Source: Poseidonia sp.
GTDB lineage: Archaea; Thermoplasmatota; Poseidoniia; Poseidoniales; Poseidoniaceae
Assembly: GCA_030827745.1 (NCBI GenBank)
Contig: JAURDW010000003.1
Span: forward strand, 1 to 60,120
Reading direction: 5' to 3'
Length of the DNA: 60,120 nt
Positions 44,823 to 47,425 of the stretch are shown here, piece by piece. Under the pieces are notes generated by a model. The model made no database searches. It was not told where the DNA came from and worked only from the letters and a program-made list of their open reading frames with translations. A program made the translations under genes and the position numbers. The stretch's first letter is position 1. The number at the start of each line of letters is the position of its first letter.

Positions 44823-46727
44823 TCAAAACAAGCGAACGGTTTCAAGGTTGCTTGGGGCGAAGGTCAAACAATTGTATCGCTCTCGTAGCGTCAGCCCCAA
44901 TTCGTTGCACTTTTGGTAATCGCCGTGGTGGCAAATGATGTTTTTCGGTGCTGGGTCGATTCGGTCGACGAAGTCAAGAAGTTGACGACGGTCAGAATGT
45001 CCGGAAAATCCATCGATGGTGACCATTTCGCAACCGATCTTTACGATTTCCGTTTTTCCGTTGATGAGCATCGGCACTTCACCAAAGCCCTTCTGCAACC
45101 GTCGGCCGAGGGTTCCTTCAGCCTGATAGCCGACGAAACAAAGCGAATTCCGTTCTTCGTGGGCCCAGTTCTTGAAATACTCCATCACGGGGCCGCCGTT
45201 GAGCATTCCCGAGGTCGCCAAGACGATGCAAGGAGAACTGTCCATCACAATGCTTTCTCGAAGTTCACGGCCTTTCACCGGTCGGAACCATTCGCTTGTG
45301 AAGGGGTTGGCACCGTCGTCTTGAAGCAAGGATTTCGCAAGAGCTTTTGTGAGGTAATTTGGATGCGACGCATGGATGGCCGTTGCTTCCTGAATCATGC
45401 CGTCAAGCCAAACGGGAACAGGTTTTACCGTTCCAGAGCGGAACAATTCGTCGATAGCGATCATCACTTCCTGGCTTCGGCCAACGGCGAAAACAGGGCA
45501 AATCATCTTCCCACCACGAAGAAGCGTCCTTGAGACGATGTCTTGGAGTTCTTGATTGGCTTCTTGCCGAGAAGGCTGGTAATCTCCGGATGCACCGTAG
45601 GTGGATTCAATCACCAAGGTTTCAACCCGAGGAAATCGTGTGTTTGCGGCATCAAACAACCAAGATTTCTCGTATTTTTGGTCACCGCTGAACACAATGT
45701 TGTGCTTTCCGTTGGCGATGTTGAGGTGAACCGCTGAAGAGCCAAGAATGTGGCCTGCGTTTGAAAAGGTCAATTTGACATCGGGCGCGATGTCGGTGGT
45801 GGAGTCCCAGTCCACGTCGACAACGTGCTTCATGCACATTCGAATGTCTTCCATATCGTAGGGGGTGCGCTTCCCTTCCGCCCCACCGACTTTCAGATAG
45901 TCCGTCTGCAAAAGCAACATCAAGTCGCGTGTCGGCGGCGTGCAGTAGACCGGACCTCGGTAGCCGTACTTGAACAGAACCGGGAGCATGCCCGCATGGT
46001 CAAGGTGAGAGTGGGTCAGCACAACGGCATCCAATTTGTCGAGGGGAAGCGCTTCTGGAGCGTTGAAGAACGGCATCGGGTCCGTATCAGAAGCGATGTT
46101 CACACCAACGTCGATCATGATTCGAGATTCGTTGGTGGTCACGTAGTGGCAGGCGCGACCCACTTCCCTGTACGAGCCCAGGGCAGTGACGCGAGCCCAT
46201 GTGCCGCCAGGACGGGTCGGGCGGTGAATGTTGAGACCGAAATCTTTCAGCAATTTCCGCCGTTCATCGCCGTTGGCTTGCCGGTACATACGGATGTCAT
46301 GAACCGTTTTTGAGAACAAAGGAGGCGTTCGTTCGACCTTGACCGACCACCCGGTTTCGTCGCGGATCCGCAAGTTGTTTTCTCCGCGCCGCCCAACGGC
46401 GCTTCCCGGGTTCTTGCACTGGATGGTCACTTCTCGGTAGCAGGAGTCAAAATACATCTCCGTGACTTCGGCATCCTCAGGAAGGATCGATTCGATATGG
46501 TTGCGTGCCTCGTCCATGTCCATCATGGCATCGAGGGGTGTTCGAAGAACGATCTTCCGTTTCACACGTTTGCTGATTTTTCCAATCAATCCGTTTTGTC
46601 CCGTGAAGGCACCGACCTCCTTGGTGATGATGGCAATGTTGCCCGCTTCCAAATCGAGTTCGTATTCAATTGAGCGCGGAATAATCTTCGCAATTTCGTC
46701 CTTCAGTTCCCGGTAGGTCATTTGCAT
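44823..46727 (-). CDS. fttA: aCPSF1 (FttA) KH-domain beta-CASP ribonuclease / transcription termination factor
   Basis: Two N-terminal KH domains, LGSYREVGRAC, THSHLDHAG, AGHILGS, ESTYG, DGFSGHSD. Confidence 0.96.
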   Translation of the reverse strand: MQMTYRELKDEIAKIIPRSIEYELDLEAGNIAIITKEVGAFTGQNGLIGKISKRVKRKIVLRTPLDAMMDMDEARNHIESILPEDAEVTEMYFDSCYREVTIQCKNPGSAVGRRGENNLRIRDETGWSVKVERTPPLFSKTVHDIRMYRQANGDERRKLLKDFGLNIHRPTRPGGTWARVTALGSYREVGRACHYVTTNESRIMIDVGVNIASDTDPMPFFNAPEALPLDKLDAVVLTHSHLDHAGMLPVLFKYGYRGPVYCTPPTRDLMLLLQTDYLKVGGAEGKRTPYDMEDIRMCMKHVVDVDWDSTTDIAPDVKLTFSNAGHILGSSAVHLNIANGKHNIVFSGDQKYEKSWLFDAANTRFPRVETLVIESTYGASGDYQPSRQEANQELQDIVSRTLLRGGKMICPVFAVGRSQEVMIAIDELFRSGTVKPVPVWLDGMIQEATAIHASHPNYLTKALAKSLLQDDGANPFTSEWFRPVKGRELRESIVMDSSPCIVLATSGMLNGGPVMEYFKNWAHEERNSLCFVGYQAEGTLGRRLQKGFGEVPMLINGKTEIVKIGCEMVTIDGFSGHSDRRQLLDFVDRIDPAPKNIICHHGDYQKCNELGLTLRERYNCLTFAPSNLETVRLF

Positions 46728-46804
46728 GTGTTCACCTCAAGCTCCCGCAGTTGCCGGTGGGTTGTGCCGAGGCACAATGCGGTAAAACCGCAGGAGTGTT
46801 TTGT

Positions 46805-47425
46805 TCACTTGAGGAGTTTTGCAATCTCGTCTTGTGAAACCTGTTGATAGCCAGTACCTGGCGTGATGACGGCCAAATCCATTCCGTTGCCGGAGGCCGC
46901 ATCGCGCTGTCCTGATGCATGGAGGGCTCGTGCAGCCAATTTTAAGGCCTCCGCTTGAGACATGTTCTCTTTGAAGCCGTCTTCAAGGACACCGTACATG
47001 TAGGGCGAACCCGACCCTGTGGCGCAGTAAACGTCGGGGATGGACCCTCCTGCGGAGTCGATGGAATACACGTGCCCTCCGTCTGCGTCAACACCGACGA
47101 TAAGCAATTGGACCCAGTGAGGTCGACCGGACAAGATGTTGGCCGTGAGCGTGGCGGCGCCCTTCACCGTCATGGGTTGTTGCCGACGAAGTTCAAACAG
47201 GGCCACTTCAGCCGTAAGGGTTCGTGAAAGGGATTGGGCATGGCCGACCAGACCCGCTGTGGTCAACGCAAGGTTATCGCCAATTTTGAAGAGTTTTTGG
47301 ACGCTCTTGTTGGCGATGAAATGGCCCATAGTGGCCCGATGGTCTGCCCCGACGACAACGCCGCCCTTGAAGGTGATACCGACGGTGCTGGTTCCGGTCT
47401 TCATGACATGTTGCTGTTCTGACAT
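46805..47425 (-). CDS. psmB: Proteasome subunit beta
   Basis: MKTG|TSTVG propeptide junction, GADHRATMG, ATGSGSP, RDAASGNG. Confidence 0.97.
   Translation of the reverse strand: MSEQQHVMKTGTSTVGITFKGGVVVGADHRATMGHFIANKSVQKLFKIGDNLALTTAGLVGHAQSLSRTLTAEVALFELRRQQPMTVKGAATLTANILSGRPHWVQLLIVGVDADGGHVYSIDSAGGSIPDVYCATGSGSPYMYGVLEDGFKENMSQAEALKLAARALHASGQRDAASGNGMDLAVITPGTGYQQVSQDEIAKLLK

Follow-up and report, generated by a model that had tools for sequence, protein, structure and literature searches.

Results

The psmB-aCPSF1 locus and its transcript

The window analyzed here is the whole 60,120-nt stretch of DNA comprising positions 1 to 60,120 of contig JAURDW010000003.1. Near-identical loci in public MAGs are from Poseidonia sp. 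(Marine Group IIa, Poseidoniaceae, Thermoplasmatota). On the minus strand, an ORF for the proteasome beta subunit, psmB (46805-47425; 206 aa; Pfam Proteasome, E 5e-52), is followed by an ORF for aCPSF1/FttA (44823-46727; 634 aa; Pfam KH_TffA, Lactamase_B [metallo-beta-lactamase], Beta-Casp, and RMMBL). aCPSF1/FttA, the archaeal ortholog of eukaryotic CPSF73, is essential and terminates transcription throughout the genome. Between the psmB stop codon (TGA, 46807-46805) and the aCPSF1 start codon (ATG at 46727) lies a spacer of 77 nt (46728-46804). The Shine-Dalgarno (SD) sequence of aCPSF1, GAGGUG (46738-46733), is 5 nt ahead of the ATG, and its GGUGA is kept in nearly all Poseidoniales relatives.

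One assembled metatranscriptome (Logan) contig covers 46717-46892, including the psmB 3′ end, the entire spacer, and the start of aCPSF1, and a second extends from inside aCPSF1 as far as 46782; querying with the locus of a relative yielded almost nothing. These RNA contigs support co-transcription of psmB and aCPSF1. Since they run through the fold described below, there is no sign of a separate aCPSF1 transcription start site downstream of the fold, a possibility raised in the initial annotation of this spacer. Contig depths were alike on either side of the spacer, which argues weakly against strong attenuation at this position, given that transcript ends and ratios cannot be read from assembled contigs. 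We rejected an aCPSF1 promoter within the spacer, as there was no conserved AT-rich box, a TTTTA in the loop of one hairpin (P2, below) was not conserved, and the RNA contigs begin upstream. No sigma-70-like site was found in the spacer, nor is one expected in an archaeon. A coding role was likewise rejected: the spacers of relatives (73-106 nt) do not keep to lengths divisible by three, and a 62-aa ORF at 46732-46920 is a frame artefact.

Predicted fold of the spacer RNA

The spacer had been described as almost fully structured, and our calculations agree. The minimum free energy (MFE) is -28.7 kcal/mol (-0.37 kcal/mol per nt), with a fold that fills the entire spacer. Compared to dinucleotide shuffles, the z score was -2.93, and 1 of 200 shuffles was as stable. 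With mononucleotide shuffles, z was -3.3, while a comparison set of 92 same-strand spacers of 55-120 nt from the same genome, scored in the same way, had a median of -0.59 and a 5th percentile of -2.35, placing the psmB-aCPSF1 spacer in the top ~3% of its own genome's same-strand spacers. Since the spacer stands out against both shuffles and genomic spacers, its structure exceeds chance. Another spacer of this genome (C64:26098-26162) is also structured, with UCUCC closing onto GGGAGA beside the next gene's start.

The spacer RNA begins with an unpaired 5′ flank, ACAAAACA (46804-46797), that extends from the psmB stop to the closing helix. This flank is A-rich in the window's clade, while in most relatives it is pyrimidine-rich (about 78% C+U). 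The 5′ strand of the closing helix P1, CUCCU (46796-46792), pairs in the MFE structure with GGGAG (46746-46742). A conserved and covarying hairpin, P2 (UGCGGU-UUU-ACCGCA), occupies 46792-46778, exactly where the initial annotation had placed its first hairpin (hairpin 1). P3, the second annotated hairpin, is also correctly positioned (46777-46762). However, it had been drawn with a loop of 2 nt; because such a loop is sterically impossible, the hairpin consists of 6 bp with a CUCG loop (UUGUGC-CUCG-GCACAA). A C-rich linker, CCCACCGGC (46761-46753), takes the place of a hairpin, P4, that is present in most relatives. The linker is followed by AACUGCGGGAG (46752-46742), which consists of a strand that we term b′ (46752-46747) and the 3′ strand of P1 (46746-46742).

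The spacer can also form the long-range helix that had been proposed. In this helix, CUCCUGCGG (46796-46788) pairs with CUGCGGGAG (46750-46742) in 9 bp that include two G-U pairs. The MFE structure adds two U-A pairs, extending the helix to 11 bp (46796-46786 with 46752-46742). The resulting rod encloses hairpin 2 and a 3-bp helix in which CGG of the linker (46756-46754) pairs with CCG (46782-46780). As annotated, the SD begins 3 nt past the long helix, the 3′ end of which is that of P1.

Conservation across Poseidoniales

In all 109 Poseidoniales loci examined, psmB lies directly before aCPSF1, with spacers of 73-106 nt that comprise 91 distinct sequences. We seeded a covariance model with 19 Poseidonia sequences and used it to align 60 spacers from two genera. 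The covariance-model alignment was required, as RNAalifold predicted only 3 pairs from a MAFFT-only alignment. The spacers share a common plan: a closing helix (P1), hairpins P2 and P3, and usually a third hairpin (P4). RNAalifold on its own recovers P2 and P3, the two hairpins of the initial annotation.

In the 60-sequence alignment, the four-helix model (P1-P2-P3-P4) had 92.5% of its cells paired. The covariation score was 0.332, compared to 0.155 for column shuffles (none of 500 as high) and 0.02-0.09 for slid partners. Changes on both sides were seen in 12 pairs: all six pairs of P3, three in P2, two in P4, and one in P1. P2, paired in 97% of cells, occurs as GCGGC/GCCGC, GCAGC/GCUGC, GCAAC/GUUGC, GCGAC/GUCGC, GCGGA/UCCGC, and GCGGU/ACCGC, and P3, which is closed by a tetraloop, is highly variable in sequence among relatives. 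P1 is paired in 94% of cells and has the consensus UYCCC/GGGAR; it is kept by sequence, not by covariation. Thus, the conservation on which the annotation was to be judged is present, with strong covariation in P2 and P3 and retention of P1, the core of the long-range helix.

The position of the fold relative to both genes is also constrained. P1 begins 6-16 nt (median 10) past the psmB stop. Its other end lies 11-19 nt (median 14) ahead of the aCPSF1 ATG, which places it 3-6 nt ahead of the GGUGA of the SD. P2 adjoins P1 without a linker. In most relatives, P4 abuts the 3′ strand of P1, giving a four-way junction; in the window's clade (L001, L002, L031, and L033), P4 is replaced by the C-rich linker. 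G-U pairs are abundant, and matches of the model on the opposite strand score ~75 bits lower, indicating that the RNA belongs to the sense strand.

A second covariance model matched the window's genome once, at the spacer (E 9e-10). In 28 relatives, it gave one match per genome, each adjoining the aCPSF1 start. A search of Rfam 15 with positions 46400-47100 of the window gave no match up to E = 10, and the spacers of 8 relatives gave no Rfam match up to E = 5. Together, these results reveal a single-copy, covarying, sense-strand RNA motif that is specific to the aCPSF1 leader of Poseidoniales.

The initial annotation had stated that aCPSF1 is often encoded next to psmB. This holds: psmB is the upstream neighbor of aCPSF1 in 38 of 40 Thermoplasmatota families sampled and also in Methanococcus. 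Distant Poseidoniales (families f2 and f3, genera g13 and g14) are missed by the model, although by eye their spacers follow the same plan, and folding z scores within Poseidoniales, these groups included, range from -2 to -4.5. In other Thermoplasmatota, the spacers vary from 0 to ~290 nt and are mostly unstructured. As the structure is confined to Poseidoniales while the psmB neighbor is far more widespread, the motif is an order-level innovation on a much older gene pair.

We considered several known folds. A tRNA-like structure was rejected, as ARAGORN found nothing in 46500-47000, Rfam was negative, and the 3-4 nt loops of P2 and P3 do not fit D or anticodon loops. No conserved tandem G-A pairs of a K-turn were seen; the UGAUG of some lineages belongs to P4 and lacks conservation. 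Pseudoknots between the P2 and P4 loops, or between CAUG of the P4 loop and the start codon, were not conserved by eye.

One strand with two partners

The initial annotation described two mutually exclusive folds that compete for one strand. The shared strand is real. The 5′ strand of P2, which we call a (GCGGUU, 46791-46786), pairs either with 46783-46778 to form P2 or with b′ (AACUGC, 46752-46747), extending P1 by 6 bp, making the two helices mutually exclusive. P3 is present in both folds. In the genus Poseidonia, a (GCGG) can pair with a′ (CCGC) in the hairpin or with b′ (CUGC) beside P1, and a′ can meanwhile pair with the 5′ strand of P4 (GUGG). With both exchanges available, the junction can branch-migrate into a rod.

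The alternative pairing recurs with matching changes in several lineages. Three-strand complementarity occurs in L019 (GUUGCA/UGCAAC/UGCAAC), L020-22 (GCGAC/GUCGC/GUCGU), L088 (GCAGUU/CUGC/AGUUGC), the g14 sequence L161 (CGCGGCGUC/GCCGU/GAUGUCGCG), and the f3 sequences L027 (GGCGA/UCGCC/UCGCC) and L152 (UUGGCUAG/GCUAAG/CUAGCC-AA). Extension of P1 was stronger for cognate than for non-cognate strand pairs (Wilcoxon p = 0.005, 19 clades). Shuffling b′ weakened the a:b′ duplex (mean z -1.2), with p <= 0.05 in 30% of 49 representatives and p = 0.055 for the window itself. In other lineages, however, the overlap between the two pairings is just 0-2 bp (L016, L047/49, and L106/110), and in genus g12 the alternative pairing is weak and needs a shifted register. 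Pairs specific to the rod showed no both-side changes and were broken in ~1/3 of sequences, as counted in the model alignment, which leans toward the junction. We discarded pair counts from a strict-register alignment of the P1 extension because automatic anchoring gave inconsistent partners in g12.

The balance between the two folds that the annotation implied was not borne out. In the partition function of the window at 37 C, pairs of the long helix have probabilities of 0.98-1.0 and hairpin 1 a probability of 0.002, such that the long helix is predicted to hold >99% of the equilibrium ensemble in the Poseidonia sp. genome. The rod is still the MFE structure at 10-30 C, and a single fold is predicted to dominate from 10 to 37 C. 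The P2 state of the window is predicted to lie 4.2-8.8 kcal/mol above the rod, and across clades the cost of this state varies from 0 to 7.4 kcal/mol. When folding of a growing transcript was simulated, it flipped to the rod once nucleotides 60-63 were made, and strand displacement from a P1-nucleated intermediate cost merely 3.4 kcal/mol. With hairpin 1 enforced (-24.5 kcal/mol), CACC (46759-46756) pairs with the GGUG core of the SD, with a barrier of 12.5 kcal/mol back to the rod; this CACC:GGUG pairing is confined to the window's clade.

From these energies and the folding path, hairpin 1 of Poseidonia sp. looks like a co-transcriptional intermediate at best, unless an external agent, for example a ribosome or protein, holds it. 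A true bistable switch, in which both folds are populated and a signal interconverts them, would account for the exclusive helices, the three-strand covariation of several lineages, and the SD pairing and the barrier found when hairpin 1 is enforced. However, it fits poorly with the equilibrium share of hairpin 1, the low cost of displacement from the P1-nucleated intermediate, an energy gap that is not conserved, SD exposure that does not depend on the state (below), and the lineages in which the overlap is missing or weak. We regard such a switch as a possible but weaker reading of the alternative pairing, and on balance an unlikely one.

Search for an output signal

If the two folds were regulatory states, they might be expected to differ in output. 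Across 19 clades, SD exposure provided no such difference and was rejected as the output of a switch: the unpaired probability of the SD was 0.17 with P2 formed and 0.20 without it (p = 0.68). The aCPSF1 SD is not unusually buried, with an unpaired probability of 0.38 compared to a median of 0.23 for other genes. In many MFE structures, the 5′ flank forms an anti-SD helix with the SD, but shuffling the flank left SD exposure unchanged (p = 0.43), and we rejected this helix as well. When the spacer was folded in a 137-nt context, the psmB codons CCUCAAG paired with CUUGAGG of the SD, a pairing limited to a few close relatives.

No intrinsic terminator (GC-rich hairpin plus U-run) was found on the sense strand of the window. 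The sole terminator-like site, at 46778-46792, is on the plus strand and is the antisense image of P2; the count of such sites was not above that of shuffles. The window's spacer contains no U-tract of at least 5 U: U runs in the flank reach 1-2 at most, and there is a U4 in the P2 loop. Since U5-U7 follow the psmB stop only in clades 5, 13 (part), and 17, a U-tract terminator was rejected as a conserved feature.

Discussion

To our knowledge, archaea have very few conserved cis-regulatory RNA structures, and we know of nothing on how the level of aCPSF1/FttA is controlled. Our literature search found no paper that links aCPSF1 with psmB by name and no account of an FttA leader or of FttA autoregulation. 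Judging from its conservation and predicted folding, the spacer between these genes probably represents a new control element for the termination factor. We propose that it would function as a single-copy, cis-acting structured leader within the bicistronic psmB-aCPSF1 transcript and set the amount of aCPSF1 made from this shared transcript. In the genus Poseidonia, where the strand beside P1 can also pair with the 5′ strand of P2, P2 would form first during transcription and then be displaced into the 11-bp rod.

The likeliest route for such control would be feedback by aCPSF1/FttA, a termination factor and RNA-binding nuclease whose target is naked nascent RNA. As the gap past the psmB stop is untranslated, it would be the one place where FttA could reach this transcript to terminate or cleave it, and the fold, together with the dwell time in the hairpin-1 intermediate, may decide how much of the gap is accessible. 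Although we rank feedback on this ribosome-free gap first, we put it forward tentatively, as a reading that could well prove wrong. It is placed first because the product is itself an RNA-binding nuclease and terminator, and autoregulation is the usual role of structured leaders in front of such genes, and because the psmB-aCPSF1 junction is a termination point in Methanococcus. Autoregulation of aCPSF1 through its leader is plausible, and published Methanococcus data offer an indirect precedent for it.

In M. maripaludis, the junction between MMP0695 (psmB) and MMP0694 (aCPSF1) is an internal operon terminator (ioTTS) with an efficacy of 0.81 (Dataset S2, PMC10450193). The ratio of upstream to downstream signal is 5.3 in wild-type cells and 2.6 upon aCPSF1 depletion, and the site is classed as "dependent" (PMC10450193); the main text of that paper does not mention the psmB-aCPSF1 junction. 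As the depletion strain expresses aCPSF1 from an engineered promoter and cassette, this dependency is confounded for the psmB-aCPSF1 operon. The junction and the gene order are the same as in Poseidonia. Because the downstream gene of the Methanococcus ioTTS encodes the termination factor, and read-through into aCPSF1 is cut in what the authors class as an aCPSF1-dependent way, feedback is built into the layout. The two sites differ in form: in Methanococcus, the signal consists of a simple U8 tract, and the AT-rich spacer around it has no reported structure, while the Poseidonia spacer is GC-rich, folded, and without a U-tract.

FttA has been described as a Rho-like factor that loads and acts on nascent RNA free of ribosomes and prefers U-rich RNA (PMC13681488). 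Several observations run against feedback by aCPSF1: the window's spacer has no U-tract, whereas FttA favors U-rich RNA; the structure is limited to one order, while aCPSF1 is universal; several lineages lack the alternative pairing or retain just 0-2 bp of it, and its rod-specific pairs show no both-side changes in the model alignment; and the similar contig depths weigh weakly against strong attenuation. We also considered a more specific version of aCPSF1 feedback, in which, as the polymerase crosses the ribosome-free gap, transient hairpin 1 would leave the downstream strand open for FttA/aCPSF1 to load and cut until the rod closes it off, making the fold a feedback sensor. The rate of hand-over would then set the sensitivity with which aCPSF1 synthesis responds to the termination activity of the cell or to the spacing between the psmB ribosome and the polymerase. 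We consider this version rather unlikely. If true, no autoregulatory attenuator based on RNA structure would have been described earlier for the CPSF73 family, archaeal or eukaryotic-type.

Three other functions could explain a conserved fold at this position. The placement of P1 and P2 would suit translational coupling or tuning that requires no factor: the ribosome terminating on psmB would melt the 5′ strand of P1, P2 would snap shut, and the region before the SD would open, such that aCPSF1 synthesis follows psmB translation at a fixed, lower ratio. The onset of P1, at a median of 10 nt past the stop, is within reach of the terminating ribosome, P2 begins exactly where the ribosome footprint is expected to end, and P1, which ends a median of 14 nt before the ATG, reaches to the border of the 30S site. 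The pairing of psmB CCUCAAG with CUUGAGG of the SD in the 137-nt context, and the second spacer of this genome that closes UCUCC onto GGGAGA beside a gene start, also point this way. However, that psmB:SD pairing exists only in a few close relatives, the SD is not unusually occluded, and its exposure changed neither when the 5′ flank was shuffled nor between P2 and non-P2 states. As three to four conserved helices also exceed what simple coupling needs, we find this explanation doubtful. A role in mRNA processing or stability has a similar standing, being perhaps a little less probable. Here, the element would be a 3′ stabilizer for psmB or a 5′ cap for a processed aCPSF1 mRNA, blocking exonucleases after an endonucleolytic cut or termination and giving the two cistrons different half-lives. 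The proteasome beta subunit is needed in far greater amounts than a termination factor, and intercistronic hairpins stabilize and protect mRNA segments in bacterial operons. The stability of the fold across the entire spacer and the U5-7 directly upstream of it in some relatives are consistent with such a role. However, one stable hairpin would suffice for this purpose, while the sequence conservation of P1 and P2 (UUCCCGCNGC) and the multi-helix junction suggest specific recognition. Moreover, one RNA contig crosses the entire element with similar depths on either side.

Specific recognition could also be by another factor, with the four-way junction as its binding pocket: a metabolite (as in a riboswitch), a small RNA, or an RNA-binding protein, whether ribosomal or not. 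A multi-helix junction and conserved helix sequences beside the ribosome binding site would fit such a site, and since no known family matched, a new RNA class could be involved. Yet the junction and loop nucleotides, where riboswitch ligands make contact, show little conservation from genus to genus, the window's own clade does without P4, and the lack of a second copy in the genome argues that there is no regulon. We consider another factor improbable. In our ranking, feedback by aCPSF1 leads, factor-free coupling and processing or stability follow at about the same level, and another ligand or protein comes last.

Feedback by aCPSF1 on its own leader would have the same logic as the Escherichia coli rho leader, where Rho-dependent attenuation allows a termination factor to limit its own synthesis via its own untranslated leader. 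The parts differ. Rho is a RecA-type helicase, and its leader relies on unstructured, C-rich rut sites, whereas in Poseidonia the factor is a beta-CASP nuclease and the leader is a conserved multi-helix fold. Structured autoregulatory leaders also precede genes for ribonucleases and other RNA-binding proteins, including the rne 5′ UTR, rnc, pnp, and the archaeal L7Ae K-turn. Like these leaders, that of Poseidonia places a conserved stem-loop structure directly before the ribosome binding site of a gene for an RNA-binding or RNA-cutting protein. In contrast to these leaders, the Poseidonia leader is intercistronic and not at the 5′ end of a transcript, and action of aCPSF1 on it is putative.

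The expression platforms of riboswitches and attenuators share with the Poseidonia leader a strand that has two partners, with the proximal one available first, and the three-strand covariation of several lineages. They differ in that the Poseidonia leader has no recognizable sensor domain and no state-dependent terminator or SD output, its two folds are unbalanced in energy, and the alternative is missing in some lineages. Bacterial intercistronic stabilizers, such as the REP elements in malEFG and those in the puf operon, are simple hairpins or many-copy repeats. As in those operons, a stable fold lies between cistrons that are needed in different amounts; the Poseidonia element, however, is a single-copy, multi-helix motif with sequence-conserved helices.

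Marine Group II archaea are among the most abundant planktonic archaea, and the Poseidoniales are uncultured. The leader is kept across Marine Group II, at a junction where data from Methanococcus show aCPSF1-dependent termination, with the dependency confounded by the engineered promoter. It could serve as a mutable handle on possible self-regulation of termination factors in archaea, of the kind that bacterial Rho exerts. The ~90 natural variants, including the "locked" L047 and L106 that lack the alternative pairing, provide material on alternative folds in archaeal operons.

Sequence context of the aCPSF1 Shine-Dalgarno element

Folding of the 137-nt minus-strand context at 46698-46834 revealed that CCUCAAG, formed by the final psmB codons, pairs with CUUGAGG, which overlaps the Shine-Dalgarno (SD) sequence of aCPSF1. 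This helix is stacked beneath the rod, the minimum free energy fold that contains the 11-bp long helix. The pairing is common only to the window and the psmB-aCPSF1 loci of relatives L002, L005, L031, L033, and L034. Two loci of the Poseidoniales family f3 carry an additional small SD-holding hairpin 3′ of the closing helix (P1), with the SD in the stem in L026 (CCUC-UUU-GAGG) and in the loop in L155 (GCUCA-GGAG-UGAGC). Thus, the surroundings of the ribosome binding site are folded differently in Thalassarchaeaceae-like genomes.

Terminator-like sequences

In some Poseidoniaceae (L070, L100, L101, L107, L109, and L164), a run of U5-U7 lies directly 3′ of the psmB stop codon and abuts the fold. 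These runs are candidate internal terminators, resembling the internal operon terminator between psmB and aCPSF1 of Methanococcus maripaludis. Loci of the window's clade lack the run and carry ACAAAACA in its place. The sole terminator-like match in a consensus scan, at 46778-46792 on the plus strand, corresponds to hairpin 1 (P2) read in antisense, followed by GGAGTGTTTT. No plus-strand gene ends there, and such matches were no more numerous than in shuffled sequences. We attribute this match to chance.

Gene pairing and structured spacers elsewhere

Among 40 Thermoplasmatota families sampled outside Poseidoniales (L111-L150), psmB was the immediate upstream neighbor of aCPSF1 in 38, with spacers of 0 to ~290 nt. 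The gene pairing is far more ancient than the Poseidoniales RNA motif. A few of these spacers are long and strongly folded, such as those of L130 (189 nt, folding z −4.9) and L115 (117 nt), and other Thermoplasmatota lineages may have separate leaders of their own.

Outside the window, five further same-strand intergenic spacers of its own genome had folding z scores of −2.6 to −4.7 (C64:26098-26162, C31:34226-34336, C33:14745-14807, C119:31104-31219, and C83:3038-3115); none of the five is a tRNA. Because in the C64 spacer UCUCC pairs with GGGAGA directly beside GGUGAGGGAG upstream of the next gene, this fold may be an SD-sequestering coupling structure.

Individual relatives

In L013, from a congeneric MAG (G008:C4:38841-40742), the 92%-identical aCPSF1 orthologue is intact apart from a single in-frame TAG, which could be explained by an error in sequencing, recent pseudogenization, or read-through. 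L038 is a Poseidonia psmB-aCPSF1 locus of 94% identity on a contig (NZEQ01000062.1) that was deposited as 'Verrucomicrobiales bacterium' and is probably from a mis-binned or mislabelled MAG.
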